Positions 19,622 through 46,197 of a stretch of 64,000 nucleotides of DNA are shown one piece after another. The notes below the pieces were generated by a model. The model did not search any database. It saw only the letters and a list, made by a program, of their open reading frames with translations, and was not told the DNA's origin. The stretch's first letter is position 1. The number at the start of each line of letters is the position of its first letter. Source of the stretch: Patescibacteria group bacterium (GTDB lineage Bacteria; Patescibacteriota; UBA1384; JBAYJO01); contig JBAYJO010000001.1 in the NCBI GenBank assembly GCA_041665085.1, positions 40,671-104,670 of the forward strand. The letters run 5' to 3'. The translations under genes were made by a program, and so were the position numbers.

Positions 19622-19834
19622 GGATCTATTCTAGCAAATTCTGATGTTTTATCAACTCGATTTGACAAATGTTTTAAAATCTTTAATACTTTACATGTTG
19701 GATGTTAAAATAATAATTAAATTTAGTTATAATTTAACTTTGTCCAGCCTCCATCTTTACTGAAAAAAAGATTGTTTTCAGTGCAGATTACGGCGGACTT
19801 CCTGTCCACTCAAGGTGGACGGAGTGGAGGTAAT

Positions 19835-20212
19835 ATGGCGGGGAAAGCAAAAATATTAGTAGCTGATGACGATGTTGTTTTAAGAGATATGTACAAGGCA
19901 AGACTTGAAGATTCCGGATATGAAATTATTACAGCGTCCAATGGCGAAGAAGCAATGGCGCGAGCAACAGATTCAAGTCCTGATTTGATTTTGCTTGATG
20001 TGATGATGCCGAAGGTTAATGGTTTTGATTGTTTGGATATGTTAAAAAGTACTGCCGAAACTAAGAAAATTCCAGTTGTGATTTTAACTGCTTTGGTTCA
20101 GGATTCTGATCGTGAAAGAGGGGTAAAAGGCGGAGCTGATGATTATATTGTGAAATCAGAGACAATGCCCGGTGAAATTATTGAAAAAATTGAAAAATTA
20201 GTCAAAAAGTAA
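19835..20212 (+). CDS. Single-domain response regulator (REC only)
   Basis: RBS GGAGTGGAGG then ATG 19835. ILVADDD, LILLDVMMP, DDYIVKS. Confidence 0.85.
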   Translation: MAGKAKILVADDDVVLRDMYKARLEDSGYEIITASNGEEAMARATDSSPDLILLDVMMPKVNGFDCLDMLKSTAETKKIPVVILTALVQDSDRERGVKGGADDYIVKSETMPGEIIEKIEKLVKK

Positions 20213-20327: not shown

Positions 20328-20846
20328 ATGTGTATGGAAGATAAGCTTATTTTAGTTAATGAGCAGGATGAAGAGGTTGGAACCGAAGTTAAACTTGAGG
20401 TTCACGAAAAAGGCGCATTACATCGTGCTTTTTCTATTTTGGTTTTCGATTCATCGAAAAAGTTGATTATACAAAAACGGGCGGAAGGGAAGTATCATTC
20501 CGGTGGGCTTTGGGCAAATACTTGCTGCTCTCATCCTAGAGAGGGTGAAAAACTCGATGTGGCTATTCACAGGAGATTAAAAGAAGAAATGGGTTTTGAT
20601 TGTCAGTTGGAAGAAAAATTTTCATTTATATATGAAGTGAAATTAAATGATCTCAAAGAGCATGAATTTGATCATGTTTTTTTTGGTAATTATGATGGTG
20701 AAATTGAGCCTAATCCTAAAGAAGTTTCCGAAATAAAACGGGTGAGCTGGAGCGAATTAAGTCAGGATGTAGAAAAAAACCCAGATCAATATGCATATTG
20801 GTTTAAGATTATTGTTCGAGAGATAAATCAAAGAAAATTTATTTAA
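20328..20846 (+). CDS. idi: Isopentenyl-diphosphate delta-isomerase, type 1 (Nudix fold)
   Basis: WANTCCSHP and RRLKEEMG motifs. Confidence 0.8.
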   Translation: MCMEDKLILVNEQDEEVGTEVKLEVHEKGALHRAFSILVFDSSKKLIIQKRAEGKYHSGGLWANTCCSHPREGEKLDVAIHRRLKEEMGFDCQLEEKFSFIYEVKLNDLKEHEFDHVFFGNYDGEIEPNPKEVSEIKRVSWSELSQDVEKNPDQYAYWFKIIVREINQRKFI

Positions 20847-20860
20847 AAATAATTAATTAA

Positions 20861-20983
20861 TAATTTCTAATTTCTAATTTCTAATTAATTTCCAATATTT
20901 TAAATGTTTAATGTTAAATCCTTGATTATCCTTTGATCATTTATTAATTAGGATTTATTTAGTAATTAGTAATTAGAAATTTT
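20861..20983. repeat. TIR-bounded AT-rich element, copy A
   Basis: 5' (TAATTTC)n TAATTAATTTCCAAT and 3' TAGTAATTAGTAATTAGAAATT inverted ends. Lies between convergent genes. Confidence 0.55.
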
Positions 20984-20993
20984 GTAATTTTAG

Positions 20994-22076
20994 CTAGTAT
21001 TCTCGATATATCATATAGTGAGCAATGCCAAGCAGGAAGTCTTTTCCTTCTGAATTGAGTTCTATTTTTTCTAATGCATCGATTGCCTCATCAACTAATT
21101 TTTTGGCAAAATCCCTAGATTTATCCAATGCTCCGGTTTCAATAATTATTTTTTTTACATCTTCATGGTCTTCATTTGTGATATTTTTATTACCTAGATT
21201 TCTATTTATTATTTCTTTTTGAGCAGGCGAAGCCGATTCAAGAGCGTCAAAAATTAAAAGAGTTTTTTTGCCTTCCCTAATATCTGAAATAACAGGTTTG
21301 CCTATTTTTTCTTCAGAACCAAACATCCCAATTATGTCATCTTGAATTTGAAAAGCGGTGCCCATTGGTATGGTGTATTTTTCAAGATTTGTGATTTGTT
21401 CTTCTGTTGCGCCGGCAAGGATTGCCCCAAGTTTTACCGGTGTGTCAAAGGTATAAGGAGCTGTTTTTAATTCTTGAATCAAAATAATATCTTTTTTTGT
21501 AATATTTTCAGTGATTTGCGTAATTAAATCTAACGCTTCTCCGTAAATTTCTCGTTCATAAGTTTTGTTTAGCTCGGCAATTGCTTTTGATTGATTTTGA
21601 ATGTCAAAATTTGATGTAACTATGATTTCATTTGAATAAGCACAGGCTAAATCGCCAGCTAAAATTGCAATTGAAGTGCCGAAGTGGCGAGGATCAATTT
21701 TATTTTTGTATTTTTCATTGGCAATTTTCTCATAATCAGCGTGAATTGTTGTTTTGCCTCGTCTTAGTGAATCGTTGTCGATAATATCGTCATGAATTAA
21801 GAGAAAAGTTTGAGAGATTTCCATTGCCATTGATGCGTTTAAAGCGGATTTAGTATCTATTCCATCGTGAGCAAGATAACTGTAGTAGGCAAGTGCGGCG
21901 CGAATTCTTTTGCCTCCTCGAAGCGTCATATCTTTCACATGTTCGGCCAGTGCTTCGGCGTGAGGTGAGATATTTTTGGCATTTTCCACTTTTTGAGATA
22001 AAAATTTATCTAATTCAAGATCAATTTTAAGTTTAAAGTCTTGCAGTTGATTTATTGCTGTATTTATCTCGACCAT
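20994..22076 (-). CDS. Polyprenyl diphosphate synthase (FPP/GGPP synthase family)
   Basis: First Asp-rich motif LIHDDIIDND and second FQIQDDIIG. Confidence 0.85.
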   Translation of the reverse strand: MVEINTAINQLQDFKLKIDLELDKFLSQKVENAKNISPHAEALAEHVKDMTLRGGKRIRAALAYYSYLAHDGIDTKSALNASMAMEISQTFLLIHDDIIDNDSLRRGKTTIHADYEKIANEKYKNKIDPRHFGTSIAILAGDLACAYSNEIIVTSNFDIQNQSKAIAELNKTYEREIYGEALDLITQITENITKKDIILIQELKTAPYTFDTPVKLGAILAGATEEQITNLEKYTIPMGTAFQIQDDIIGMFGSEEKIGKPVISDIREGKKTLLIFDALESASPAQKEIINRNLGNKNITNEDHEDVKKIIIETGALDKSRDFAKKLVDEAIDALEKIELNSEGKDFLLGIAHYMIYREY

Positions 22077-22085
22077 ATTTTCCTT

Positions 22086-23864
22086 TTAAATTATTTCTAA
22101 TACTTTTTTGCAAATTCCATTAGCTGTTAAGCCATATTTTTCTCTAAGTTCGTTAATTTCTCCGTGTTCGATGAAATCTTCAATTCCAATTCTTACAACT
22201 TGAGTGTCTTGAATGTTTTGTTTTTGAAGCTCTTCCAAAATTGCGGAGCCAAAACCACCATCTAAAATATTTTCCTCAACAGTGATTATTTTACCGGTTT
22301 TTGCGGCATTTTTTACCATTTCCGAATCAATCGGTTTTACTGACCTGGCGTTATATACTGTTGCGTGGATATCATTCTTTTTAAGTAGATTTGATGCCTC
22401 AATAGCGGGATAGACCATGGATCCGATGGCTAAAATTGCAGCGTTGTTTCCTCGTCTTAACTTTTCTGCTTTTCCGATCTCGAGTTTTTCAAGAGTTCGG
22501 TTCATTGCGCTTCCGATGCCTGTCCCGCGAGGATAGCGAATGGCAATTGGACCTTCAGTGTATTGGGTGGCAGTGTAAAGCATATGCTGGAGTTCGTTTT
22601 CATCTTTTGGCGCCAAAATTATCATATGCGGGATATTTCTTAAATATGACAGGTCAAAAGCTCCGTGATGAGTTGGTCCATCGGATCCAACAAGGCCGGC
22701 TCGGTCAATCGCAAAAATTACTGGAATTTTTTGCAAAGCAACATCATGTAAGATTTGGTCGTAACTTCTTTGAAGAAAAGTGGAGTAAATGGCAACAACC
22801 GGTTTAAATCCTTCAAGCGCCAGGGCGGATGCAAATACAACAGCGTGTTCTTCAGCAATACCAGTATCGAAGAATCTCTCGGGGAATTCAAGAGCGAATT
22901 TATCGATTCCTGTTCCCGCAGGCATGGCTGCGGTTATGGCTATGATTTTTTTATCTTTTTTTGCCAGCTTAATTAAGGTATTGCCAAAGACTTTAGTGTA
23001 GGTTAGTTTTTTGGTGTCTTTGGATGTTTTTCCTGATTCCAAAATAAATGGGCTGGTTGAGTGAAATGCAGGGGGATTGTGTTCGGAGTAGTAATATCCA
23101 AGACCTTTTTTTGTTTCAATATGAATCAGTTTTGGTCCTGGTGTTTCTTGGGCAAGATTAAACACATCAATTAATTGTTTAATGTCGTGCCCATCGATGG
23201 GACCGAAATATTTAAATCCAAGAGAATGAAATATTGATTCAATATCGGTGTGAGGCTCTCCATTCATATGAATAGAGGAAAGTTTTTCCAGATAATTGGC
23301 TATGCCTCCGGTATTTTTTGAGATGGAAAATTTATTATCATTTAAAATTACTGTAAGATCGGTTTCTGTTGAACCAACATTATTTATACCTTCAAAAGTT
23401 AAGCCATTTGTTAGGCTGCCATCCCCGATAATTGCAACAACATGATTTTTTTCTTTTTTTAGATCGCGAGCTTGAGCAAAACCTAGCGCAGCCGAAACAG
23501 CCGTTCCGACATGACCGGCTCCATAGCAGTCGTGCTCGCTTTCTTCTCTTTTCAAATATCCACTTAGCCCGTCTTTTAATCTTAATGTTGAAAATTTTTC
23601 ATATCTTCCGGTGAGTAGTTTGTGTGTGTATGCCTGATGTCCGACATCCCAGACGATTTTATCTTCAGGGGAATTATATGAGTAGTGAAGTGCGATTGTG
23701 AGTTCGACTGTTCCCAAGTTTGGGGCTAAATGGCCACCGTTTTTTGCAACGGTTTTAATAAGGACTGTTCTGATTTCTTCAGATAGTTTTTTTAGCTGGG
23801 TAATCGGTAGCTTCTTTAAGTTTTTCGGACCTTTAATTTTTTTGAGTAAAGATTTTTTAAACAT
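22086..23864 (-). CDS. dxs: 1-deoxy-D-xylulose-5-phosphate synthase
   Basis: TPP-binding GDG region, DVGHQAYTHK, transketolase-like C-terminal domains. Confidence 0.9.
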   Translation of the reverse strand: MFKKSLLKKIKGPKNLKKLPITQLKKLSEEIRTVLIKTVAKNGGHLAPNLGTVELTIALHYSYNSPEDKIVWDVGHQAYTHKLLTGRYEKFSTLRLKDGLSGYLKREESEHDCYGAGHVGTAVSAALGFAQARDLKKEKNHVVAIIGDGSLTNGLTFEGINNVGSTETDLTVILNDNKFSISKNTGGIANYLEKLSSIHMNGEPHTDIESIFHSLGFKYFGPIDGHDIKQLIDVFNLAQETPGPKLIHIETKKGLGYYYSEHNPPAFHSTSPFILESGKTSKDTKKLTYTKVFGNTLIKLAKKDKKIIAITAAMPAGTGIDKFALEFPERFFDTGIAEEHAVVFASALALEGFKPVVAIYSTFLQRSYDQILHDVALQKIPVIFAIDRAGLVGSDGPTHHGAFDLSYLRNIPHMIILAPKDENELQHMLYTATQYTEGPIAIRYPRGTGIGSAMNRTLEKLEIGKAEKLRRGNNAAILAIGSMVYPAIEASNLLKKNDIHATVYNARSVKPIDSEMVKNAAKTGKIITVEENILDGGFGSAILEELQKQNIQDTQVVRIGIEDFIEHGEINELREKYGLTANGICKKVLEII

Positions 23865-24359
23865 CAGATTTATTTAATTGCTAATATTCGAATACTCTGT
23901 GGCTTGTCACAGAGATGAAGAATACTAAGATAGTACTTGTCGGACTTCGACGAGCTCAGTCGAGTCGCGGAGCCGACTTCCTCTGCAACGCACCCACCAT
24001 GATATCCTGCCAAAGCGGGGTTGGGTTCATTGATATTCTTAATATAGCAGGATTATGCAAAAATACTCAAGATCCGATTGATTTATCGTTGTTTGAGATG
24101 GTACATTGTGTTTAAATACAATTATGGCAAGTGAAAGAGAAATTAGGAAATTTGGTTTTTTCAAACTAACAGAGATTATTTTGGGTCGCTCCGAAGCGAA
24201 GCGGTAGTTATTTAATGCATTTTTTTAGAATACTTTTATATTATTTATCAGTCAGAAAACAAAACCCCCAGGTCCTTTGACAGAACTGGGGGGATTTAGC
24301 TTATTAACATGATCAGCGTGGGTGGTTATCAAAAGAAAAGTGATGTGTCCTCTAAGCTC

Positions 24360-24704
24360 CTATAGCAATTTACGAAGTTGGTTTGCCAGCTCTGGGAGAT
24401 CTTCTTCAACAACTTTCCAAACCTCATCAACATTCACATAATCGTATTCATGGACTAAGAGATTGCGCATCCCAATTGCTTCCTTAATGGGGAGATCGGG
24501 ATTTTTTTCTCTTAAATCGGTAGATAATTTTTTTGCTGCTTCACCTAAAATTTCCAAATTTCTCATAACAGCGTCTTGTATGAGCTTAGTGTTGGCGAAT
24601 TTTATGTAATCATAACCTTTACAGTATTCAAGAATCTGATCCGTAGCATCTAGCATATCTTTAAGATAAACTTCATCTTTTTTCATATAGAACTTTCGTA
24701 TCAT
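24360..24704 (-). CDS. HepT (HEPN-domain) toxin
   Basis: R-x4-HxY motif RNLLVHEY. Confidence 0.75.
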   Translation of the reverse strand: MIRKFYMKKDEVYLKDMLDATDQILEYCKGYDYIKFANTKLIQDAVMRNLEILGEAAKKLSTDLREKNPDLPIKEAIGMRNLLVHEYDYVNVDEVWKVVEEDLPELANQLRKLL

Positions 24705-24972
24705 TCAAAATATTTTTTTTGATACTTGGTTTAATGTTTTTTCTAGAGACCAGATCGACTGGTCGACCGAGCATTTCCTCTAAATCATATTGGATGCCCC
24801 CAATTTTCATAAGTGATTTAGTTTCTTCGAAATCAACCATTATATCAATATCGCTATCATCTTTCTCTTCTCCACGAGCAAAAGAACCAAAAATTCCAAA
24901 GTAATTAATTTGGTTTTTTTGGCAGTAGTCTTGAAGCTCAATTTTATTGTCGATTAGGAGTTGTTTTTTCAT
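24673..24972 (-). CDS. MntA minimal nucleotidyltransferase antitoxin
   Basis: GSFARGE...SDIDI (GS-x9-13-DxD). Overlaps HepT by 32 nt. Confidence 0.75.
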   Translation of the reverse strand: MKKQLLIDNKIELQDYCQKNQINYFGIFGSFARGEEKDDSDIDIMVDFEETKSLMKIGGIQYDLEEMLGRPVDLVSRKNIKPSIKKNILNDTKVLYEKR

Positions 24973-25101
24973 AACTTAATTTTATCAAATATTGCTCATT
25001 TTGCATATAGTAGAATTCATTAGCGTTCTAGTATGTTGTGGGTTTAAAATGTTTTTTTGAGGTAATATATAAATTAGATATTGAATCTATTTAGGAGGGA
25101 A

Positions 25102-25551
25102 GTGAAAAAAGTTTCACAGGCAATTTGGCTTGATTCTAAAAAAATTGAAAAACCTGTGAATTTAAGAAAAAAAACTTGGGCTTTTTTAATTTTTGAGCTT
25201 GAAAAAATGGATTATGATGATTTAATACAGCATTTAGGGGATTTGGGTTATGGTAATGCTAAAAAATTAGATAAATTCAAAGCATTGAAAATAATTGCTG
25301 ATTGCCCAGCGCCTTTTCTTTTGAGAATTGGAATTTTAAATTTTGCTGATTTGATGAGTAATACAGTTATTTCTTTAGACGAAGGTGTTGAATATATTAT
25401 TGATAAAAAAGCGGCAGATGAATTAAAATCAAGTACGCAATCTGTTGATCTAATTAGACTTTACGATAATAAATTAAAAAGGTTTGATCGAAAAGAAATT
25501 ATCCAATCAATATTTTCAGAAAAAGTTTTTGACCAACTATCTGAAAATTAA
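25102..25551 (+). CDS. Hypothetical protein (GTG start after RBS AGGAGGG)
   Basis: Its 5' region is duplicated at 26571-26668 and 27751-27840. Confidence 0.45.
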   Translation: MKKVSQAIWLDSKKIEKPVNLRKKTWAFLIFELEKMDYDDLIQHLGDLGYGNAKKLDKFKALKIIADCPAPFLLRIGILNFADLMSNTVISLDEGVEYIIDKKAADELKSSTQSVDLIRLYDNKLKRFDRKEIIQSIFSEKVFDQLSEN

Positions 25552-25564
25552 TAATTATTAGAAT

Positions 25565-25897
25565 TTATTTAAAATATTTTTTTTCCCAATCTTTAAAAAT
25601 GGCAATAAATTCTTGCCAAAGTTTTTCAGGATCGCCAGGAATGTGATGATCAGGAAGTTCCAAATCTCCCGCGACTGTTGCTATGTCAAACATTTCTTCG
25701 TCTTTTTCTATTTCCGGATCGAACATAAGTTCGGCAATTTGATAAGCAGTTTCTTTTCTGTCGATTTCTTTTTTCTCTAGTTTATCTAAAACTTTATTAA
25801 CAAAATCAACGAATTTTTTTCGTTCTTTGAATTTCTTTTTTTCTTCTTCAGGCGATAAATTTGTTTGTTCTGAAAAGATTTTCATAAAGTGTTTCAT
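25565..25897 (-). CDS. Hypothetical protein
   Basis: ORF only. Confidence 0.4.
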   Translation of the reverse strand: MKHFMKIFSEQTNLSPEEEKKKFKERKKFVDFVNKVLDKLEKKEIDRKETAYQIAELMFDPEIEKDEEMFDIATVAGDLELPDHHIPGDPEKLWQEFIAIFKDWEKKYFK

Positions 25898-25900
25898 ATT

Positions 25901-26113
25901 TTATTTTGAAGAAGTAATATCATTAAATGCTTTTATTACATCTTCCTTCTCAAATTCATCAAGAGCTAGAATATAATCGATTTCTCTGATTTTTTCTGGT
26001 TCACAATAAAAAACTAATCCAACTTTATCGGCAATGAATTTCAATTGATTTTTAGAGAGTTTAACTAATTTTTTTTTGAAATTTTCAAATTCTTTTTTAG
26101 TAAATTCAGACAT
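25901..26113 (-). CDS. Hypothetical protein
   Basis: ORF only. Forms a tight pair with 25565-25897. Confidence 0.4.
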   Translation of the reverse strand: MSEFTKKEFENFKKKLVKLSKNQLKFIADKVGLVFYCEPEKIREIDYILALDEFEKEDVIKAFNDITSSK

Positions 26114-26172
26114 ATTTGCTCCTATTAATCTTATTTATTGAGTGAGAGGACGAATGCCCTCTCACTCAGAGC

Positions 26173-26457
26173 TCATTGTTTGTTGACGGGTATGTCAACG
26201 GGCTGGCTGTTGTATCCTGGCGTGTCGTAGTTGTGGCCAACCTTTTCTGTATCACAACCACGGTTACTCACTGTTCTCTGGGTGTCTGTGTGGATGACTC
26301 CAGTTTTGTCTGGATGTTCTGGTGAAAACCTGATTCTTGTTTCTTTCGAGCTTCCGCCTGAGCCGCCACTACTCCCAGAGCTTTTATCACCTCCCGACGA
26401 GCCGGATTCGCCGCCCGATGACGGGCTAGTTCCGAAAATGGCATCCCATAAACCCAT
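26173..26457 (-). CDS. Hypothetical Gly/Ser-rich protein, GC-rich
   Basis: RBS AGGTG before ATG at 26457. A perfect 11-bp hairpin lies downstream (26128-26157). Confidence 0.4.
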   Translation of the reverse strand: MGLWDAIFGTSPSSGGESGSSGGDKSSGSSGGSGGSSKETRIRFSPEHPDKTGVIHTDTQRTVSNRGCDTEKVGHNYDTPGYNSQPVDIPVNKQ

Positions 26458-26673
26458 TACTGCACCTCTATTTGTGTGCGAATGCATGTGTTCTTATTGC
26501 TAAGTATATGTTGTTTTATCAAGCTGTCAAGAGTTCATTACTTTTTTTATGGATTAAAATATTGTATTCAAATGTTTTTTTGAGGTAATATATAAATTAG
26601 AGATAGAATCTATTTAGGAGGGAAGTGAATAAAGTTTTGAGGGCAATTTGGAATGAATTTATTGTCTAAAAAT

Positions 26674-27639
26674 TTACTTCTCTATGATTTGTAGTTTTAG
26701 TTCCAAAAAATTTGTATCTAGTTCTAAGATTTGTTCTTCTTTGTCTTTTATTTTTAGCCAATCTTCAATTAAATGGCATTTTTCTCCTAGAATTTCTTTT
26801 GCGATTTGATACCCCGAAGCGCATGCCGGATACATTCCTTTTCCAGTAAGTCCGGAGGCTAATCCCGCGGCATCACCTGCAAGATAAATATTATCAAATT
26901 TGTATCCTTGATAATCATAGTTTATTATTGACCCAGCGAATTTTCCTTTTGAAATATCAATATTATTTTTTTCAATCCATCTTTTCAAATTTTGAGTTAG
27001 CAATGGTAGGTTGGGGGATTTGTAATCAACTGCTGCTCCGACAGAAGTAAATTTATTATTTGGAAATATCCAAGCATAACCTTTATCAAATAATTGTTCA
27101 TCAACAAACATTTCGAAATCAGGATAAACCTTGGGAATGGTGTAATGGACAGCAGCTATAAATTTTTTTGTTTCGAGGCCAAGGAATTTTCGAACTATTG
27201 AAAATGAGCCGTCAGCACCAATTAAATATTTGAAATTTATTTCTAATCCATTAGCGGTTAGTTTATTTTTTTCAATATTTGTTATTTTTTGACCTAATTT
27301 AATATCAATATTCTTAAATTCAGAAAGTTCGTTTTTAAGTTTATTTAAAAAATCAGGCCTGCAAATTGAAGAGATCAAGCTCTGGTTAGTTGGCATTCTG
27401 TGTTTTTTATTTTTAGTTACGATTACTAGAGGTTTAAGGGAAAAGTTCATGCTTGATTCAGGAATAAATTGTATATCTTCGTCTTCTACGCCATAACCGC
27501 AGGGTTTTAATCCCAGTTCATTATTTTTTTCTAAAACCAAAACGTTTATGTTAGAATTTCCTAGCGCTTTTGCACAGTTTAATCCTGCAAAGCTTGCACC
27601 GATTATTACAATGTCATAAAAGTTTATTATCTTTTGCAT
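26674..27639 (-). CDS. Geranylgeranyl reductase family FAD-dependent oxidoreductase
   Basis: N-terminal FAD fold DIVIIGASFAGLNCA, LVLEKN, GDAAG. Confidence 0.7.
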   Translation of the reverse strand: MQKIINFYDIVIIGASFAGLNCAKALGNSNINVLVLEKNNELGLKPCGYGVEDEDIQFIPESSMNFSLKPLVIVTKNKKHRMPTNQSLISSICRPDFLNKLKNELSEFKNIDIKLGQKITNIEKNKLTANGLEINFKYLIGADGSFSIVRKFLGLETKKFIAAVHYTIPKVYPDFEMFVDEQLFDKGYAWIFPNNKFTSVGAAVDYKSPNLPLLTQNLKRWIEKNNIDISKGKFAGSIINYDYQGYKFDNIYLAGDAAGLASGLTGKGMYPACASGYQIAKEILGEKCHLIEDWLKIKDKEEQILELDTNFLELKLQIIEK

Positions 27640-27750
27640 GAGTTAATTTTATTTTAATAAATTGATTTTTGCAATAAATTTTCTTTTGTTATTTGAGTTG
27701 ATTTAATTAATAAATCGAGCTAATTTAGAGTTAATGAAAAATCAAATAAT

Positions 27751-27840
27751 AAAAATTGGAAAACCTGTAAATTTAAAAAAAAGACTTGGATTTTTTTAAT
27801 TTCTGGGCTTGAAAAAATTGATTATAGTAATTTATTACGG
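27751..27840 (+). pseudogene. Degraded fragment homologous to codons ~13-45 of the 25102 gene
   Basis: ~80% nucleotide identity to 25139-25228, with a frame disruption. Confidence 0.5.
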
Positions 27841-27912
27841 TAATCATCAGGTTAAAATCGTTCACGGAACAGAAATATTTCGTTAATAAATTCTTTTGTC
27901 ATCGATATTAAT

Positions 27913-28620
27913 CTATTTAGTCTTTGATTCATTCTCGATCAAAAATGGGTTGAAATTTGTTTTGTCATCAAAAGCGTCTTCCTTTTCCTCTTTTTTCAAA
28001 AAGCTTACAACTCGATAAGTCAAGGGGGTCATGATAACTTCTACACCCGTTTTGAATAAATAATTTGAAATAATAATTGTCAAGACAATGCCTGGGTTAA
28101 GGATTCCAATAAACGCAATACTAACAAAGAGTACAGAATCAACAAGTTCCCCCACTAAAGTCGATCCTATCGTCCTAGTCCATAACCATTTTCCCTTTGT
28201 AAAGACCTTCATCTTCGCCAAAATGTAGCTATTTGTAAATTCTCCAGCCCAGTATGCTATTAATGATGCTAGCACAATACGAGGAACTAAACTGAACAAG
28301 GCTTTAAATGCATCATTCCACTGCCAACTTTCATTTGGCGGAATTGCCGCCACAATAGCAAGCGTAATAGCCATAAGTATTGCCGAGATAAAACCGGTCC
28401 AGATAACCTTGCGTGATCCCGAATATCCGTACACCTCAGTTAATATATCGCCAAAGATATAGGAGAGAGGGAATAGTAATGTGCCACCATCAAATACAAA
28501 AGGGCCAATATTAATAATTTTGGTTGAGGCAATATTGCTGATTAACAGAACAGCTACAAAAAGGCCGGTGATTATAGGAAACCATTTATAATTTTCTAAT
28601 TTTCTTTCAGAGTTCTTCAT
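27913..28620 (-). CDS. Queuosine precursor transporter, YhhQ/COG1738 family
   Basis: Signature FPLSYIFGDILTEVYGY. Polytopic membrane protein. Confidence 0.75.
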   Translation of the reverse strand: MKNSERKLENYKWFPIITGLFVAVLLISNIASTKIINIGPFVFDGGTLLFPLSYIFGDILTEVYGYSGSRKVIWTGFISAILMAITLAIVAAIPPNESWQWNDAFKALFSLVPRIVLASLIAYWAGEFTNSYILAKMKVFTKGKWLWTRTIGSTLVGELVDSVLFVSIAFIGILNPGIVLTIIISNYLFKTGVEVIMTPLTYRVVSFLKKEEKEDAFDDKTNFNPFLIENESKTK

Positions 28621-28689
28621 AATTCATACATTTAATAATTAATATTGTTTAATTTGTATAATCTGGTAGGCTGTTCTAACACGAACAGC

Positions 28690-29385
28690 CTACCATGGAG
28701 ATAGTGGGGAGATGAAGCTCATCGCTTTTTGGACCGTTTCATCGATAGGTTTCTCATTGCACAGAACTATCCAATGAATTGGCTTCACAGAGAACGTTTC
28801 TATTAGTCGATCGAAGCACTCTTTATCGGCAACGTTTTTCTCAGCCATTCCTAGTTGAGTGTTGTCGAAATCAAGTAGGGCTGTTTCTCTGTTCGAGAAC
28901 CTTTCAATCGCCACTTCTGGAGAAGTTTCTAGATATATCAACTTCAAATCAGTGTAGCGGTTCAGTATCCCTAGTAATCTTGGATCCAGATCAGGAACAA
29001 ACTTTCCATTAACAAGCCCTGCTGATTTGCGAAGTGCTTTGGTCCGTCTAATGGAGAAATGTCCGTCAATAAGCAGTAGCTCGCTCTTTGATGCTAAAAA
29101 ACGCATCAGCACGAGCCAAGCGGCTCGTTCAATAAAGTCGTCGTGGTAAGGACCAATCTGATCCCAACCTGAGAGTCCCTCTGTTCCCCCAATCTCGACT
29201 ACGAGTTGACGTTGCTTGGCTGTTAGGCAGCCAGTCATACTTTGTATGACCGAGCATAGTGTTGTTTTGCCGGCACCATGATTACCTCCCACTACTGCTA
29301 CCTGTTTCACGCACAGCACCTCCTTATCTGTGAATACTCCATCTAATATACTAGATACCGAACTTTTGTCAATACAAATCGACAA
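28690..29385 (-). CDS. P-loop NTPase / predicted kinase (AAA_33-like), GC-rich
   Basis: Walker A GGNHGAGKTT. A perfect 12-bp hairpin lies downstream (28654-28684). Confidence 0.5.
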   Translation of the reverse strand: MSICIDKSSVSSILDGVFTDKEVLCVKQVAVVGGNHGAGKTTLCSVIQSMTGCLTAKQRQLVVEIGGTEGLSGWDQIGPYHDDFIERAAWLVLMRFLASKSELLLIDGHFSIRRTKALRKSAGLVNGKFVPDLDPRLLGILNRYTDLKLIYLETSPEVAIERFSNRETALLDFDNTQLGMAEKNVADKECFDRLIETFSVKPIHWIVLCNEKPIDETVQKAMSFISPLSPW

Positions 29386-29395
29386 GCCCTACTTC

Positions 29396-30643
29396 TTATC
29401 TTGAAATGATAATCTCACTAAATCCAGATATATAATTTTTTTCTATATTATACGATGACAGTACCTTGACTTTTTCTTTCTTTTTGACCTCCACAGCTTT
29501 GTTTTTATTGTTCATTATTAATTCGATAAGTTTAATTAGTTCTTTTGTATTGTGTTTACACAAAAAACCATTTTGCCAGTTTTGAATTATGCTTGTGAAG
29601 CATTGGATGTTGCTGTTGATAGTATATAAATCTTTATGAGAAATTAGTACTGCTTCGTTTGGAACAATTGGACTGAAATCTCTAAGTGGCATATTAATCA
29701 AAAATTTTGTGTTAGAGTATCTTAATAGATACTTTGGAAGGTCTGGCTCATAATCAAAAAATAAATAAATTTGTGAATTATCTTTTGCAATTTCTGCAAG
29801 ATTGTTTTGAATTTTTTCAATAAATGCTTCATCGCTAAAACTAGAAGCAATTAAAATTCCTATAAAATCGTCGTGCTTCTTGCAAAACTGAATCATACAA
29901 TTTAAAGAAAAATCCAGTCCTTTATATTCGTCAGCCCTTGCGTATGAAAAAATGATTTTTTTATCGAGAGGGATCTTTTTTTTGGCTAGAAACAATTTAA
30001 TTTGTTGTTTAGTTAATCTGGTGTATTTTTTAAGTTCATTAAAATTTAGACCATTCCTAAACTGAATCACCTTGTTATTGGGGATTGCAAGCTTCTTCTT
30101 TATTATTTCATCAACTGACTTAGATATTGATCCCAGAAAATAATTTGGTAATTTTTTTATTTTTGAGATTGCTTGATCCTCCCAACTACGAAGATCTTTT
30201 TCGTTACAATAACTTTGTTTGTGTACGCCAGCTAAGCTATGAGGAATCCAAACATTAATTAGATTCTTTTGATCCGTTAGAACTCCTGCAAAAATTGAGT
30301 CATTGGCTAAAACTATATTTTCGCCGGAATTATTATCCGAAATATGATGAATAATGCCAATAGCTTCTTTGTTATATTCTTTCCACAAAACCAGATCAAA
30401 ATAAGAGTTATTGAGAGATTTACGTCTTTTAATATAGAAATTATTACTCGAATTTCTTTTTGTGTCAGACAGAGATATTACAAACAAACTCAATAATATT
30501 CCTCGTTTAGCAAAGTAGGCTCTAACGTTAGACCATGACTTTGCAAAGTTTTGCGCAATTGTACCTACCCCGCAACGAGTTTCGGTTATTCCATCTTCGG
30601 TTAGATAGATAATATTAAATAATTTTTTTGAGTTCATCTTCAA
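29396..30643 (-). CDS. GT-B fold glycosyltransferase-like protein
   Basis: C-terminal domain pattern YARADEYKG ... PIVPNEAV is weakly GT4-like. Confidence 0.35.
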   Translation of the reverse strand: MKMNSKKLFNIIYLTEDGITETRCGVGTIAQNFAKSWSNVRAYFAKRGILLSLFVISLSDTKRNSSNNFYIKRRKSLNNSYFDLVLWKEYNKEAIGIIHHISDNNSGENIVLANDSIFAGVLTDQKNLINVWIPHSLAGVHKQSYCNEKDLRSWEDQAISKIKKLPNYFLGSISKSVDEIIKKKLAIPNNKVIQFRNGLNFNELKKYTRLTKQQIKLFLAKKKIPLDKKIIFSYARADEYKGLDFSLNCMIQFCKKHDDFIGILIASSFSDEAFIEKIQNNLAEIAKDNSQIYLFFDYEPDLPKYLLRYSNTKFLINMPLRDFSPIVPNEAVLISHKDLYTINSNIQCFTSIIQNWQNGFLCKHNTKELIKLIELIMNNKNKAVEVKKKEKVKVLSSYNIEKNYISGFSEIIISR

Positions 30644-31175
30644 CTTTTTCTAGTAAATTCACTTTGTCATGTCCTGAGGTAATATAAATAACATTTTTTT
30701 TATTTTTAAAAAATAATTTATAAAAATCACTGCAATGTTTCATTCCTTCTGAACCACTCCATACATCCTCAATTATAGTTTTTCTTGGACGATTAATAAG
30801 GCTGAATTCTGGAGTTTGATTCAAATAAATATAATAATCTGGTTCATATAACTTATGTTCTTTTAGGGCGGTTGCAACCCATTTTTTCTTCTCCTTAAAA
30901 TTTCTGGCCAATTTAAATTTTTCTGCCACATAATCCCAAGCCAACATAGACGGGTACCCTCTATCAATAACTGAATTTTTTCTACTTCTTTGGGCTAGAT
31001 AATATTTTTCCTTTGTTTCTTCAAATATTTTTTCTTGACTATCAGAGATAGCAGACTCGTCTAAATGTCCCAATGACTCATTTACTTTTTCAAAATTAAA
31101 TCGGTCTCGTAGCAAATCTGCAACTGTGGTTTTACCACTAGCCGGAAGACCTTCAATTACGAATATCTTTTTCAT
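30615..31175 (-). CDS. P-loop nucleoside/nucleotide kinase-like protein
   Basis: VIEGLPASGKTT Walker A. Deoxynucleoside-kinase-like layout. Confidence 0.5.
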   Translation of the reverse strand: MKKIFVIEGLPASGKTTVADLLRDRFNFEKVNESLGHLDESAISDSQEKIFEETKEKYYLAQRSRKNSVIDRGYPSMLAWDYVAEKFKLARNFKEKKKWVATALKEHKLYEPDYYIYLNQTPEFSLINRPRKTIIEDVWSGSEGMKHCSDFYKLFFKNKKNVIYITSGHDKVNLLEKVEDELKKII

Positions 31176-31710
31176 TTAGTTGAAGCTCCTTTTCTCCCTT
31201 AACCCTTTTTTCCCAAGGGAATCTAATCCATTTTAAGTGGGGGCAAATAAAAGCCACATAAAGACTAACGCCATAATTTGAAGAAGACATATCAAACTTT
31301 TCGTCAATAACAATGGAGCAGATACCAGTGAGAGTGGATCCGCCTTTCTTAATCTTGGCAATTGCCCCGTCTATTGTCACCCCTTTAAAAATAATATCTT
31401 CTACAATGAGATAACGTTTACCTTTTTTAATTTTTGAGCTCATCCCAGTTTCCACAAACTCGCAGTAATCATGCGGAGTGTTTGAGGCAGTTCTTTTGCC
31501 TTGATAGAAAGATAAATCGCGCTTGACAGTATGATGAGAGATGATTGCAGCGGGAACCATGCCTCCTCGAGCCATAACTAAAATCTCATCAAAAGAAGAA
31601 GCATCAAGAGACTCAATACTCTTCAATACGCCATTAAAAATATTGTCCCAGGAGAGGCAAATCACTTTTGACTTATTGCTCATTAATTTTGGCTTATTTG
31701 CAAATTTCAT
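31153..31710 (-). CDS. Purine phosphoribosyltransferase (type I PRTase)
   Basis: ARGGMVPAAI and PRPP-binding YLIVEDIIFKGVT. Confidence 0.7.
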   Translation of the reverse strand: MKFANKPKLMSNKSKVICLSWDNIFNGVLKSIESLDASSFDEILVMARGGMVPAAIISHHTVKRDLSFYQGKRTASNTPHDYCEFVETGMSSKIKKGKRYLIVEDIIFKGVTIDGAIAKIKKGGSTLTGICSIVIDEKFDMSSSNYGVSLYVAFICPHLKWIRFPWEKRVKGEKELQLNEKDIRN

Positions 31711-32390
31711 TTGTTGATTACTACAAATGCATCAAAACTACCTTTGAAAATGGATACTTTTTTGATGTTATATGTGGCACCTAATTTTTTAATCTTACCC
31801 AAAATATTAATTAGTTTTTTTTCCTCAATGCTAGTGATTTTTCCAACTTTTCTGGTTTTATTAACACCAAAATAGTCATCTTTAGTTTCAACAATAATAT
31901 TAAATAATATGTATTTTTTGCTCATTGAATACATCTTAAAAATATTGTATTCCAAATATTTTTGGAAAAATCTTGTTTTCGAATTTAATCCACCTAAATT
32001 AATTACTAGGTCGTATTGAGCTTTAGGGTTGAAGGAAAGAAAATTTTCCGTTTTAACATCTAGTGAATTATTCTTATTCTTGACATAATTAATAAACTCT
32101 GGCACAATATCAATTCCAGTATACTGAACTTTTTTGTTACATTTGTCTTTATAAAAATAATAGAAATTGCCAGTTCCGCAACCAACATCAAAAATAGAGA
32201 AAACTTTTGCGCAATCAATTATGCCAATTGAGTAATTGAAAAATTTTAGACTGCCCTCCTTATCTCTCCAGTCTAAAGACTTTTCCGAGATGCCTGATTT
32301 TTTTATTCTTGCTTGATAGTAAGAAATTATCTTGTTTGAATCAAGTTGCCATTTTTCTAACAGAATTTTTTTATTCAAATTTTGATTCAT
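31707..32390 (-). CDS. Class I SAM-dependent methyltransferase
   Basis: Motif I DVGCGTGNF. Confidence 0.7.
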   Translation of the reverse strand: MNQNLNKKILLEKWQLDSNKIISYYQARIKKSGISEKSLDWRDKEGSLKFFNYSIGIIDCAKVFSIFDVGCGTGNFYYFYKDKCNKKVQYTGIDIVPEFINYVKNKNNSLDVKTENFLSFNPKAQYDLVINLGGLNSKTRFFQKYLEYNIFKMYSMSKKYILFNIIVETKDDYFGVNKTRKVGKITSIEEKKLINILGKIKKLGATYNIKKVSIFKGSFDAFVVINK

Positions 32391-32513
32391 ATATTAGGAT
32401 TCATATTTTAGTTATTTATACAACAATTAGGGGACTTCGTCAAAGAATTGGAAAACTCTATTTTATTCTTAGCCTTGAAAATGCTATATTGAGATTAAAG
32501 ACAGAATGATTAA

Positions 32514-33635
32514 TTGTTATTTATTATATTTCCAATGAAAAAAGTTAAATCTATATCGGCAGGTGGACTTATCTCTAGAAATTTTCAGGACAGGTTAGAA
32601 CTTCTTTTAATTACAACTCTTGATGGCAAATTGACGATTCCAAAGGGTCACATAATTGGAACTGAGACATTTGAAGAAACTGCTGTCAGAGAAATCAAGG
32701 AAGAAATTGGGCTGAAAGAAGCTGCTGTTACCGGTTCTTTGGGAGATATAACTCGAGATGGTATGGAACCTAGCGGGGAATCCTCATTAAAAGAAATCCA
32801 TTTTTTTCTTATGAAAGGATCTGGTTATACTTATCTTCATGAAGAAGATTATGTTTGGATAGAGTTTGATCGTGCGTTGAAACTTATGCAATGGAAAGAA
32901 GAAAAAGAACTGATTGAAGAGAATAAAAAGAAAATTGCCAAGAATGTCTCTGACTATTTTTCCAAAAGCGATTTATCATTACTGTGGGATAATCAATACG
33001 CCAATTATCAAAAAAGAGATGAATTCGCGTTGAAGCCATATAATATAATAGAAGAAACGCTAAGCAAGCTCACACCTAGCGCTACTATCTTTGAGTTGGG
33101 AACGGCCACAGGGAGAGATGCCCTAACTTTCGCCAAAGCTAAAAAATCTAAAATTTTTGGTATCGATATATCCTTGCACGCCATTTGTAAAATGTGTGAA
33201 AACTTTATGTCTTTTGAGCTAGATCACCTGTTAACAACAAAAGTAATGGATGCAGGAAACATTATTGAATCTGATTTACCAAAAAAAATAGATATATTTT
33301 TTGCCAGATTTGCCTTGAATCTTTCTGATATGAAAACTTTTTTTCTCATCAATGAAATTATAAAAAAAATGCCCATTGGAGGATATGTAATTATTGAGGG
33401 CAAAACCAAACAAGACTATGGTATCCTAGAGGGCAAAAAATTAGGACCAAATGTTTATAGAGATAAACACGGCTTCAATATCAGAACATGGGACGAATCA
33501 TATGTTAATGAATATTTTGTGAAGAAACTCAAGCTAAAATTAGTAAAATATAAAAAAGCTAGCTTTTTATGGGGACAGAACAGGGCCAATGTCGCCTATT
33601 TTGTTCTGCAAAAAACCAGAGAATATTGTTATTGA
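32514..33635 (+). CDS. Nudix hydrolase fused to SAM-dependent methyltransferase
   Basis: Nudix box GHIIGTETFEETAVREIKEEIGL in the N-terminal half. MTase motif I FELGTATG in the C-terminal half. Confidence 0.6.
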   Translation: MLFIIFPMKKVKSISAGGLISRNFQDRLELLLITTLDGKLTIPKGHIIGTETFEETAVREIKEEIGLKEAAVTGSLGDITRDGMEPSGESSLKEIHFFLMKGSGYTYLHEEDYVWIEFDRALKLMQWKEEKELIEENKKKIAKNVSDYFSKSDLSLLWDNQYANYQKRDEFALKPYNIIEETLSKLTPSATIFELGTATGRDALTFAKAKKSKIFGIDISLHAICKMCENFMSFELDHLLTTKVMDAGNIIESDLPKKIDIFFARFALNLSDMKTFFLINEIIKKMPIGGYVIIEGKTKQDYGILEGKKLGPNVYRDKHGFNIRTWDESYVNEYFVKKLKLKLVKYKKASFLWGQNRANVAYFVLQKTREYCY

Positions 33636-33667
33636 GAGAAATTATTAATTAATGTTAAAATAAAAAT

Positions 33668-34516
33668 ATGAAGAAAGTTTTGAAAGTGATTTGGAATGAG
33701 TTTATTTATGGGGGGCATTTGCTTGCTCTGGGACCAGTAGCCATTAATTTATCTGTGATGACTGCTTTAAAATTACCTATCAATTTTTTTATTTTAGTTG
33801 GAGTATATCTTCTATCATATATTGTTTATTTTTTCGATCGAATTCAGGATTATGATTTAGAATCATCTCAATTAAGAAAGGATTTGTATAAATTTCATTT
33901 TAAATATCGTATTTATATTTCTGTAACAGTAGTTATTGCCTTATTATTATCAATGTATGCAGCCAGCATGCAAAGTTTTTATTTGTCTTTACTATTTATT
34001 ATTTTAGGTTTTTTCTACGGTATTTTTTTTAAAAAATTAACTCATATTATAATTGGATTTAAAAGTTTTTTTGTCGCAATTCTTTATTCTGGCACGATTT
34101 TGTTTACTCTTTCAGTCATCCCAACCGTTAATAGTTTTGGGTTAAAGCTGATTCTGATTTTATTCTTTTTTTATTTTATGCGATGGTTTATTAATACATC
34201 TTTTTGTGATGTTAAGGACAGGGAAGTGGACAAGAAAATTGGTTATAAGACTTTGGCTGCAGTTTTAACCAACAGAGTTTTTTTAATAACAATTCATATA
34301 ATTAATCTTTTTTCATTAATGTTTTTAGTTATAATGATTTATTATTTTAAATTACCTTATTATTTATTTGGGTTATCTTTAGTTTTTCCTTTCACTGTCT
34401 TGTATTTAAATTTATATCAAAAACAGTATGATTTACAGAAATTAACAAATATATGGGCTGACGCAGAAGTTATAATTTGGTTATTTGTATCAATAGGAGG
34501 GTTTAAATGGGTTTAA
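33668..34516 (+). CDS. UbiA-family prenyltransferase
   Basis: Polytopic. Asp-rich motifs FFDRIQDYD and DVKDREVDKKIG. Confidence 0.6.
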   Translation: MKKVLKVIWNEFIYGGHLLALGPVAINLSVMTALKLPINFFILVGVYLLSYIVYFFDRIQDYDLESSQLRKDLYKFHFKYRIYISVTVVIALLLSMYAASMQSFYLSLLFIILGFFYGIFFKKLTHIIIGFKSFFVAILYSGTILFTLSVIPTVNSFGLKLILILFFFYFMRWFINTSFCDVKDREVDKKIGYKTLAAVLTNRVFLITIHIINLFSLMFLVIMIYYFKLPYYLFGLSLVFPFTVLYLNLYQKQYDLQKLTNIWADAEVIIWLFVSIGGFKWV

Positions 34517-36243: not shown

Positions 36244-36373
36244 AAATAGTTTTTAAAGTTCATAAAGTCTATAAAGTCGAAAGGGAAAAAGATTACTTCG
36301 TTTTGCTCGCAATGATAAAGGATATGGTAATGCCTAGAGCTAATCACTCTAGGCATTTATGTCTTATGTGAGG

Positions 36374-41078: not shown

Positions 41079-41079
41079 T

Positions 41080-42123: not shown

Positions 42124-42330
42124 AACCCCTCCTTGCTAAGTTAAAAGTTGAAAGTCTGTAAAGTTCATAAAGTTCAATGAATAGAAAATCTTTAAGACTA
42201 GAAATCAAAGTTTTTAACTTCAAACTTAATCCAATTCTATTCTACTATGATTTGTCAAAAAAAAGAATAAATTCATATTCTGACCATCTTAACTTTATAA
42301 ACTTTTAACTTTATGAACTTTATGAACTAA

Positions 42331-46142: not shown

Positions 46143-46150
46143 ATTGTGAA

Positions 46151-46185: not shown

Positions 46186-46197
46186 TTAAATTTCGGA

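Follow-up and report, generated by a model that had tools for sequence, protein, structure and literature searches.

An orphan clade of UbiA-family prenyltransferases paired with a HisKA_7TM sensor kinase in Patescibacteria, a candidate prenyl-lipid module

We report that a UbiA-superfamily membrane prenyltransferase of an orphan clade and a HisKA_7TM sensor histidine kinase most likely constitute a translationally coupled two-gene unit in Patescibacteria, as judged from gene order across genomes. The pair lies in a 64-kb stretch of a patescibacterial MAG (hereafter the window), whose gene content is elsewhere typical of this group (Table 1). Across many patescibacterial classes, a homologous HisKA_7TM kinase gene adjoins the prenyltransferase gene (ubiA below) in all 30 loci compared, and it stands directly downstream in 29. 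In 29 loci the stop and start codons overlap or are at most 20 nt apart, most often with a 4-nt overlap. Moreover, the pairing is retained at 25-40% UbiA identity while the other neighbours vary. In the window, the two reading frames share the 10 nt between the kinase start and the ubiA stop, and both the kinase ATG and a GGAGGG Shine-Dalgarno-like sequence are contained within the 3' end of ubiA. The promoter-like site before ubiA is the best of the region, in a scan that as a whole was not enriched over shuffled sequences. We also note that an earlier, sequence-only reading of this DNA left the kinase pairing out, although it is the strongest feature of the locus. That reading dealt with five isoprenoid genes, namely dxs, a polyprenyl synthase, idi, a geranylgeranyl-reductase-family (GGR) flavoprotein and ubiA; all five are present, with exactly matching open reading frames.

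Table 1. Features of the window considered in this work (positions in the window; PPS, polyprenyl diphosphate synthase; HK, histidine kinase)
Feature	Position	Strand	Evidence
Receiver-only response regulator, shortly before idi	19772-20212	+	PF00072 89.8 bits
idi, type-1 isopentenyl-diphosphate isomerase	20328-20846	+	NF002995 149.4 bits (cut-off 127); TIGR02150 113.8 bits (cut-off 105.8)
Short-chain trans-polyprenyl diphosphate synthase (PPS), FPP/GGPP-synthase type	20994-22076	-	PF00348 192 bits
dxs, 1-deoxy-D-xylulose-5-phosphate synthase	22086-23864	-	TIGR00204 774 bits (cut-off 466)
Short GGR-family flavoprotein, 321 aa	26674-27639	-	TIGR02032 110 bits, below 158.8 cut-off
Second methyltransferase, divergent	31707-32390		
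Nudix hydrolase-SAM-methyltransferase fusion, directly upstream of ubiA	32546-33635	+	PF00293 36.6 bits, PF13847 28.8 bits
Promoter-like site before ubiA	33632-33661	+	TTGAGA-18-TAAAAT, 10/12 matches, TG extension
UbiA-superfamily membrane prenyltransferase, orphan 'EFIYGGH' clade	33668-34516	+	PF01040 42.1 bits (gathering 34.2)
Sensor histidine kinase (HK): polytopic HisKA_7TM sensor, HisKA, HATPase_c	34507-36243	+	HisKA 66.3 bits, HATPase_c 96.2 bits
Terminator-like hairpin 3' of the kinase gene	36329-36357	+	11-bp stem, then T-rich tail

The UbiA-family assignment made from the letters holds: the protein passes the PF01040 threshold, is all-helical with the 8-9 transmembrane segments of the UbiA fold, and conserves the catalytic residues; an identical database protein, encoded on a 152,995-bp contig of a Patescibacteria group bacterium MAG, is annotated as a UbiA family prenyltransferase. 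Its two acidic motifs read [N/D]57-x3-[D/E]61-x3-[D/E]65 and D181xKD184xxxD188, and its basic diphosphate-binding residues are R70, K122 and K132. Among 157 clade representatives, there is no exception to D184, D188, K122 or K132; 150 keep R70, 155 have N or D at position 57, and 151 have D or E at position 65. Position 61, the +4 acidic residue of the first motif, is acidic in 83% of these representatives and missing in about 17%. With its catalytic residues conserved across the clade, the protein is a genuine enzyme and probably an active one.

The clade comprises at least 431 cluster representatives at E <= 1e-30, and its hallmark is an invariant N-terminal EFIYGGH motif. Its members are found in Patescibacteria and in several archaeal lineages, including Methanosarcinaceae, Methanocellaceae and Thermoplasmatales. 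When ten members were compared with the NCBIfam equivalogs, no cut-off was reached, the top score being 51 bits against a 238-bit cut-off. The (bacterio)chlorophyll synthase models (TIGR01476, TIGR02056, PRK07566) gave at most 32.5 bits against cut-offs of 212-436, and the ChlG match in the PDB covers only 92 residues (E = 4e-3). On these profile scores, the window protein belongs to an uncharacterised orphan clade, distinct from the known enzymes of ether-lipid and quinone synthesis.

As for the kinase, its PF16927 (HisKA_7TM) score in the window is marginal (25.6-28.1 bits against a gathering threshold of 28.6), and the domain was matched at E <= 0.01 in 21 of 26 UbiA-adjacent kinases, the best at 8.7e-13; we defined the class by PF16927 together with PF00512 and PF02518. 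The sensor is conserved, with seven invariant residues (W46, G135, G177, N185, F188, G205 and S208). The sensor is predicted to fold as a seven-helix bundle of GPCR-like topology, and receptors with lipid ligands are among the matches of the model. The literature gives no ligand for any HisKA_7TM domain (PMC5847659, PMC6944256).

We then considered the isoprenoid precursor genes. The earlier calls of dxs and of a type 1 idi are borne out by curated equivalog cut-offs, all of which are exceeded, and the presumed FPP/GGPP synthase has short-chain features in addition to its PF00348 match. Indeed, its first Asp-rich motif (FARM) is an insertion-free DDIID with a Phe at -5, where a bulky residue limits chain length, and its closest solved structures are the GGPP and FPP synthases 3lk5, 8f8f and 1wy0. 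The second Asp-rich motif (SARM) is DDIIG, which we take to be that of the actinobacterial IdsA-type enzymes, the top PDB matches of this protein. No chain-length equivalog cut-off was reached in the profile search, and from its motifs the protein looks like a short-chain (C15-C20) enzyme. It is likely the supplier of the prenyl donor, and it could also be just the housekeeping FPP synthase for bactoprenol. Altogether, dxs, the short-chain PPS and idi are an ordinary precursor cluster.

The GGR assignment stood in part: the hallmark motifs of the FAD fold are kept, but the TIGR02032 subfamily cut-off was missed, and the C-terminal part present in the 390-450-aa enzymes is missing from the protein. 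K45-P-C47-G with the catalytic Cys47, G187-YAWIFP193 and G255-DAAG259 are invariant in 16 bacterial and archaeal short-form homologues, while the N-terminal dinucleotide motif is GASFAG instead of GxGxxG. The best solved relatives are the Sulfolobus GGR and the Thermoplasma DGGGPL reductase.

In the window, the isoprenoid genes form three separate units over 14 kb rather than a single operon, the GGR gene standing 6 kb and the PPS up to 12 kb from ubiA, with unrelated genes in between, among them a transporter gene and a toxin-antitoxin pair. The functional link among these units comes from gene neighbourhoods in other genomes. PPS homologues adjoin the UbiA-kinase pair in 8 of the 30 loci and stand directly beside ubiA in L004, L006 (with a gap of 18 nt), L009, L012, L016, L018 and L034; the short GGR gene adjoins ubiA in four (L007, L042, L049 and L051). 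The closest GGR homologues, P0020, P0023 and P0025, are divergent neighbours of the pair in L007, L051 and L049, respectively, and searches seeded with GGR homologues arrived at the pair in two of three look-ups. Both genes thus re-associate repeatedly with the pair, in differing order and orientation, and an archaeal locus (L017) has the order UbiA-UbiA-GGR. Nudix genes recur beside ubiA in related loci, one of which (L010) has a CMAS-type lipid methyltransferase there; the window fusion was listed from a TTG at 32514, and the ATG at 32546 is the likelier start. Stand-alone receivers occur within 6 kb of ubiA in 12 of the 30 loci and directly flank the pair in seven. These candidate partner regulators are receiver-only, without an output domain; the window has four receivers, each a candidate partner of the kinase, and the one upstream of idi is an uncertain member of the module. 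No acceptor-biosynthesis genes recur around ubiA in the 30 loci.

The sequence-only reading had proposed a saturated prenyl chain attached to an acceptor. This is a reasonable interpretation, because the synthase and the GGR-like reductase recur adjacent to ubiA and form a neighbourhood with it in other Patescibacteria. We propose, at roughly even chances, that the synthase, the prenyltransferase and the reductase are a prenyl-lipid module coupled to a dedicated intramembrane sensor kinase. In this scenario, PPS would provide a C15-C20 prenyl diphosphate, which UbiA would ionise at its two conserved acidic motifs, joining the chain to an acceptor in the membrane. The GGR relative would then saturate the chain and, in some genomes, the Nudix hydrolase or a methyltransferase may further modify the product. 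The co-translated kinase might sense this lipid, or the membrane state that it sets, through its seven-helix intramembrane domain, and signal to receiver-only response regulators. The gene identities, the UbiA fold with its conserved catalytic residues, the orphan status of the clade and its pairing with the kinase are shown by the data, and we infer the donor chain length, that there is a reduced lipid product and that the kinase senses it. Several observations weigh against the module: PPS and GGR adjoin the pair in a minority of loci and lie 6-12 kb off in the window, no genes for making an acceptor recur nearby, the candidate partner regulators have no output domain, the +4 acidic residue is missing in about 17% of the clade, and the synthase may serve bactoprenol.

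A more specific scenario is that the product of UbiA is a prenylated signal, either diffusible or carried in the membrane, of which the adjacent kinase is the dedicated receptor, a possibility that we consider doubtful. In quorum sensing, the genes of a signal synthase and its receptor typically lie side by side, and here the adjacency is strict and translationally coupled amid a variable context. The conserved intramembrane residues and the predicted GPCR-like topology, with lipid-ligand receptors among the structural matches, are also consistent with a ligand-synthase/receptor system, although it seems unlikely that the seven-helix sensor binds a lipophilic prenylated molecule made by UbiA. 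Divergence between relatives is fast for UbiA (nearest relative at 42% identity, against 75% for the GGR), but any membrane protein would be expected to diverge faster. Moreover, the overlapping genes leave no room for a ComX-like peptide gene, export of the product from the membrane would be conjectural, and a homeostatic sensor fits the data equally well. At the opposite extreme, dxs, PPS and idi would feed only bactoprenol for peptidoglycan, GGR and UbiA would be unrelated, and the UbiA-kinase adjacency would be an inherited order without function. The adjacency of ispA and dxs is indeed common in bacteria, and unrelated genes intervene in the window. However, the pairing persists over many patescibacterial classes with every other neighbour changing, the stop/start overlap is maintained, and PPS and GGR rejoin the pair repeatedly, which makes this explanation very improbable.

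The remaining alternatives concern the product. The archaeal-type ether-lipid option raised by the sequence-only reading would make UbiA a divergent DGGGP synthase that, together with GGPP synthase and GGR, provides a bacterium with saturated diether lipids. MjDGGGPS is the top match of UbiA both by sequence in the PDB (E = 1e-3) and by Foldseek, the short GGR family is also found in DPANN archaea at about 40% identity, and one Parcubacteria genome is reported to encode homologues of the GGGP and DGGGP synthases (PMC7852524). However, all ten clade members tested scored at most 36.6 bits against the DGGGP synthase models (NF009521, NF009522, NF009512; cut-offs 278-353), and the window protein had no match to them at E <= 1. 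No G1P dehydrogenase or GGGP synthase (PcrB) domain was found in the window and its flanks of about 10 kb on each side (about 84 kb), or, across the 30 related loci, among the gene families that recur (in 2-3 loci or more) in the 6 kb on either side of ubiA, and the ether-lipid reading is therefore unsupported. In addition, Methanosarcinaceae, Methanocellaceae and Thermoplasmatales already carry a canonical DGGGP synthase, and in methanogens and Thermoplasmatales the clade protein comes as an additional paralogue. We hold this option to be very unlikely. The same reading had set against it a grouping of UbiA with MenA/UbiA quinone enzymes and a lack of other ether-lipid genes; the latter were indeed not found in the regions searched, but the protein did not group with the quinone enzymes. 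Prenylation of a ring acceptor by a MenA/UbiA-like enzyme, followed by methylation and side-chain reduction, is likewise very unlikely. The methyltransferase domain directly upstream of ubiA, the second divergent methyltransferase gene, a UbiE-type methyltransferase 4.5 kb downstream of ubiA in L001 and weak matches of some clade members to MenA models argue for it. Against it, the ten members scored at most 39.6 bits with the MenA, UbiA and MqnP models (TIGR00751, TIGR01474, PRK06080, NF041585; cut-offs 102-555), which left the window protein unmatched, and the window, its 10-kb flanks and the 30 related loci yielded no genes for ring biosynthesis or a respiratory chain. The methyltransferase of L010 belongs to the CMAS lipid-olefin type rather than to UbiE/MenG, and to our knowledge Patescibacteria are generally without quinone-dependent respiration. 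Finally, UbiA could cyclise the prenyl diphosphate itself without an acceptor, giving a terpenoid for use by the membrane or the kinase. Genes of an acceptor pathway do not recur, PPS, UbiA and the kinase being the smallest set that does, and membrane UbiA-type cyclases retain the same Asp-rich motifs. These motifs do not discriminate, however, specific support is absent, and the recurring GGR and methyltransferase genes fit a linear chain at least as well; we give cyclisation little credence.

Patescibacteria (CPR) are usually described as host-dependent cells without membrane lipid synthesis of their own. The prenyl-lipid module that we favour bears on this picture: a predicted catalytically intact prenyltransferase clade of at least 431 clusters goes with a sensor kinase of its own throughout the phylum and recurs beside PPS and a chain reductase, which implies that patescibacterial cells may themselves produce, and monitor, one or more isoprenoid lipids. 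At the same time, archaeal-type ether lipids, a tempting claim for this bacterium, are set aside as unsupported. The pairing with UbiA would offer the first functional entry point to the HisKA_7TM sensor domain, and the two- to four-gene set is a concrete candidate for heterologous expression. If the product were a signal, Patescibacteria would sense their own density, membrane or host through a self-made isoprenoid, with a possible use in cell-cell or host sensing by episymbionts.

Among known systems, the archaeal MjDGGGPS (PDB 6m31/7bpu) resembles the proposed module in its UbiA fold, its C20 donor and the reduction of its product by a GGR. The window protein differs by its low identity (13-15%), the family cut-offs, which it misses by more than 250 bits, and its pairing with a histidine kinase, no GGGPS/G1PDH partner being found in the 84 kb and 30 loci. 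In helix 1, which is outside the PDB alignment, it has EFIYGGH where DGGGP synthases presumably have an ExxRPxN-type motif. The archaeal homologues ApUbiA and AfUbiA (PDB 4od4, 4tq3; 11-12% identity) offer no function to transfer; as far as we know, their physiological substrate was undefined when the structures were solved, and we know of no kinase association. The UBIAD1-HMG-CoA reductase couple is an analogy only, being a eukaryotic, kinase-free protein-protein mechanism. ComQXPA, CqsA/CqsS and LuxM/LuxN also place the gene of an isoprenoid- or lipophilic-signal enzyme beside those of a response regulator and a multi-pass histidine kinase. ComX carries a prenyl group (PMC5331326), but ComQ is a soluble polyprenyl-synthase-like protein that acts on a peptide. 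A prenylated-peptide system of the ComQXPA type was rejected for the present locus: a precursor-peptide gene is absent, given the overlap or short spacing of the pair in 29 loci. DesK-DesR of Bacillus subtilis is likewise a case of a polytopic-membrane histidine kinase tied to lipids, DesK being encoded beside the lipid-modifying enzyme under its control. DesK keeps lipid homeostasis by sensing the membrane via its transmembrane helices (PMC8301901). It has five of these, a HisKA_3 core and the DNA-binding regulator DesR, whereas the system described here would combine a HisKA_7TM sensor with receiver-only regulators and a prenyltransferase co-translated with its kinase.

All five isoprenoid genes that the sequence-only reading had combined into a saturated-lipid set (dxs, a polyprenyl diphosphate synthase, idi, a geranylgeranyl-reductase-family flavoprotein or GGR, and the orphan membrane prenyltransferase UbiA) were found exactly where it had placed them, but it overlooked the overlapping histidine kinase gene directly after UbiA. 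A Shine-Dalgarno-like GGAGGG lies within the end of UbiA. There is also a promoter-like site ahead of UbiA, and a hairpin beyond the kinase gene. The kinase consists of a polytopic N-terminal sensor (HisKA_7TM, with a marginal score) followed by HisKA and HATPase_c. A homologous kinase adjoins UbiA in all 30 patescibacterial loci examined, window included; it is directly downstream in 29 of them, with an overlap most often of 4 nt. In the exception, L010 (L-numbers denote loci carrying UbiA-clade genes in other genomes), a CMAS-type lipid methyltransferase gene is inserted, and the presence of this cyclopropane/mycolic-acid-synthase-type enzyme is a hint of methylation at double bonds in the UbiA product. 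The other neighbours vary by locus; among them are the mraZ-ftsI cluster and genes for Mur ligases, tRNA synthetases and ribosomal proteins. Since UbiA identity across the 30 loci is merely 25-40%, the pairing appears to be kept by selection and not by recent common ancestry.

Coordinates of the genes and clusters discussed, in the window unless another locus is named
Feature	Position	Strand	Details
Receiver-only regulator	8934-9332	+	
Receiver-only regulator	16550-16939	-	
Second kinase	16954-18225		PilS-like 6TM sensor
Receiver-only regulator	19772-20212	+	
idi, type 1	20328-20846	+	curated equivalog, 149 bits (cut-off 127)
Polyprenyl synthase	20994-22076	-	PF00348, 192 bits
dxs	22086-23864	-	curated equivalog, 774 bits (cut-off 466)
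HepT-like RNase and MNT nucleotidyltransferase	24360-24972	-	toxin-antitoxin pair between dxs and the GGR gene
GGR-like flavoprotein	26674-27639	-	321 aa; GGR family 110 bits, below cut-off 158.8
UbiA	33668-34516	+	above Pfam threshold
Histidine kinase	34507-36243	+	578 aa; start overlaps UbiA stop codon
Receiver-only regulator	38997-39374	+	
Type IV pilus cluster	39782-48018	-	PilM, PilN, pilins with N-terminal methylation motifs, T2SSF platform protein, T2SSE ATPase
DnaB replicative helicase	50275-52908	+	877 aa in total; intein with LAGLIDADG homing endonuclease inside
CMAS-type methyltransferase, L010	2527-3420	+	uncultured bacterium; between UbiA and kinase
UPF0047/YjbQ, L006	6508-6951		directly upstream of synthase
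UPF0047/YjbQ, L009	1196-1699		directly downstream of synthase
UPF0047/YjbQ, L010	803-1249		
UPF0047/YjbQ, L016	13085-13534		
UPF0047/YjbQ, L049	14112-14552		directly upstream of synthase
Distant clade member and signalling genes, L045	960-8662		Calditrichaeota MAG

An invariant N-terminal EFIYGGH motif marks out the UbiA clade, which numbers 431 representatives of fifty-percent clusters at E <= 1e-30. Its subfamily placement was sought by curated HMM cut-offs, a PDB profile search and a fold search. None of ten clade members, bacterial and archaeal, reached an NCBIfam equivalog cut-off: the best score was 51 bits, to the uncharacterised PRK13591 model (cut-off 238), and the DGGGPS, MenA, UbiA, MqnP and ChlG models all gave 40 bits or less. 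Among solved structures, the clade profile matched MjDGGGPS best (E = 1e-3), followed by ChlG (4e-3) and AfUbiA (0.04). Across 157 representatives, D184, D188, K122 and K132 are invariant, R70, D181 and K183 nearly so, and motif 1 reads [N/D]-x3-[D/E]-x3-[D/E]. The catalytic apparatus is thus strongly constrained, and UbiA is most likely an active prenyl-diphosphate-using enzyme and not a degenerate sensor subunit; the near invariance led us to rule out a non-catalytic pseudo-enzyme.

The closest solved relatives of the window synthase are GGPP and FPP synthases. Established rules predict the chain length made by polyprenyl synthases from the first Asp-rich motif (FARM) and its upstream residue. 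Here the FARM is DDIID, with no insertion, and a Phe stands five residues upstream, so that a C15-C20 product is predicted. The window GGR keeps the catalytic-Cys KPCG, GYAWIFP and GDAAG motifs, and among solved structures it matches Sulfolobus GGR and Thermoplasma DGGGPL reductase best. The protein is of a short-form family, about 320-346 aa long and without the C-terminal domain that GGRs usually have, which is common to many Patescibacteria and, at about 40% identity, to DPANN archaea (Aenigm-, Woese- and Nanoarchaeota; GGR homologues P0064, P0065, P0076 and P0109 belong to this comparison). In the GGR subclade adjoining the UbiA-kinase pair, GASFAG replaces the GxGxxG dinucleotide motif. 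The isoprenoid genes of the window form three separate units, set apart by nucleotide-metabolism genes, the HepT/MNT pair and a queuosine-precursor transporter. Database records assign the 152,995-bp contig, with its UbiA and GGR proteins, to a Patescibacteria MAG. The rest of the window fits this assignment: it has FtsH, HisRS, the intein-bearing DnaB and type IV pilus genes, and the pilus cluster is typical of episymbiotic Patescibacteria.

In some other genomes these genes come closer together. The synthase adjoins the UbiA-kinase pair, before or after it, in 8 of the 30 loci, and the short GGR does so in four, as compared with a distance of 6 kb in the window. Of four GGR homologues with known neighbourhoods, three that are among the closest to the window GGR (P0020, P0023 and P0025) lie divergently beside the pair, and P0028 does not. 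Genes for idi, small Nudix proteins and UPF0047/YjbQ also recur nearby, the last with no copy seen in the window, and ispH and ispG are found near the pair in L049.

In the sensor of the UbiA-adjacent kinases, residues W46, G135, G177, N185, F188, G205 and S208 are invariant, and PF16927 was matched by 21 of 26. Structure prediction of the domain from a 9-sequence alignment gave a pLDDT of 78, and a word-index search with it returned eight matches and no new gene context. The ligand of the HisKA_7TM family is not known (PMC5847659, PMC6944256). Receiver-only regulators occur at 12 of the 30 patescibacterial loci. The window holds four stand-alone ones with no output domain, one paired with the second kinase and one directly upstream of idi; BLAST scores do not single out any of them as partner of the UbiA-linked kinase.

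A scan of species-representative genomes for the EFIYGGH motif gave 41 loci. The bacterial ones are from Patescibacteria of many classes (Paceibacterota, Saccharimonadales, Parcubacteria, Moraniibacteriota, Minisyncoccales, Nealsonbacteria), and the archaeal ones from Thermoplasmatales, Methanosarcinaceae, Methanocellaceae, one Aenigmatarchaeote and one Methanobacteriota MAG; Methanohalophilus sp. RSK (Methanosarcinaceae) is the sole record without a MAG or SAG label. Loci L016, L020, L024, L030 and L040 come from Saccharimonadales or Saccharibacteria. A crude neighbour-joining tree of 45 members is star-like, with archaeal groups scattered among bacterial ones at no fewer than four places, and therefore supports no direction of transfer. 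No archaeal UbiA locus has a co-directional kinase. A divergent PAS histidine kinase lies beside UbiA in Methanocellaceae (L027, L038), and a divergent PaaK-like AMP-ligase in Methanosarcinaceae (L031, L036, L041), with a downstream MFS transporter in two of the three (L036, L041). Tandem UbiA paralogues occur in four of five Thermoplasmata-class loci, the Thermoplasmatales (L011, L013, L014, L017); a 377-aa gene of unknown function follows in all five. In L011 alone a KaiC-like ATPase could be confirmed, and a GGR is present at one of the five. A methanophenazine prenyltransferase role for the archaeal members was considered and dropped, because some lineages holding the clade presumably lack this compound. 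UbiA paralogues have been connected with methanophenazine synthesis as speculation only, the paralogues being unspecified (PMC6315138; bioRxiv 10.1101/2022.07.20.500911). In the Calditrichaeota MAG, a distant clade member has as neighbours a kinase of 1147 aa, a response regulator of 431 aa and a sigma-54 activator, and the tie to signalling genes may thus extend beyond Patescibacteria.

The best-supported model, to which we give about an even chance, is a prenyl-lipid module of synthase, UbiA and GGR monitored by the co-translated HisKA_7TM kinase. The synthase would supply a short-chain prenyl diphosphate, UbiA would transfer it to a membrane acceptor and the short GGR would then saturate the chain, the product being possibly methylated or dephosphorylated in some genomes. 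The kinase would monitor that lipid, or a membrane state arising from it, and signal to stand-alone receiver proteins. UbiA and the kinase might also be a true signal-synthase and receptor pair, which we hold to be possible but rather doubtful. Although the window genes lie in three units, the comparative neighbour data show that the synthase, reductase and UbiA combination of the sequence-only reading is real as a recurring neighbourhood, and we find it highly improbable that there is no functional module among them.

The possible archaeal-type ether lipid raised by that reading fared less well. Every substantial window ORF was scanned against Pfam, and about 10 kb of contig on each side was covered through precomputed Pfam annotation. 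Neither G1P dehydrogenase nor PcrB/GGGPS, nor CarS, UppS or quinone-ring genes, were found in the 64-kb window and these flanks, a negative that holds for these roughly 84 kb of the 152,995-bp contig; none is among the recurrent neighbours in the 30 related loci either. Moreover, the archaeal lineages with the clade presumably already possess a canonical DGGGP synthase, so that in them the clade member is a further paralogue, and this speaks against its acting as a DGGGPS. GGGPS and DGGGPS homologues have been reported in one Parcubacteria genome (PMC7852524); they are described as close DGGGPS homologues, and the present clade is unlike them. We consider a part for UbiA in ether-lipid synthesis highly unlikely, despite MjDGGGPS being the best structural match, and quinone prenylation very unlikely; a UbiA-type terpene cyclase seems very improbable too.

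Taken singly, the proteins add new members to known superfamilies; the conserved unit of enzyme and kinase amounts to a two-component system joined to a lipid enzyme. In the literature searched, neither the pairing of UbiA with a histidine kinase nor this UbiA clade had been described before, nor had a role for the Patescibacteria GGR homologues or a HisKA_7TM ligand. The unit indicates that these bacteria, although reduced and dependent on hosts, produce and sense their own isoprenoid lipid, and it opens an orphan sensor domain to testing. By analogy, and not by family membership, it resembles DesK-DesR, in which a membrane-sensing kinase is tied to a lipid-modifying enzyme (PMC8301901), the quorum-sensing pairs of a synthase and a polytopic kinase, among them ComQX/ComP, whose peptide is prenylated (PMC5331326), and the prenyl sensor UBIAD1 (PMC4374513).
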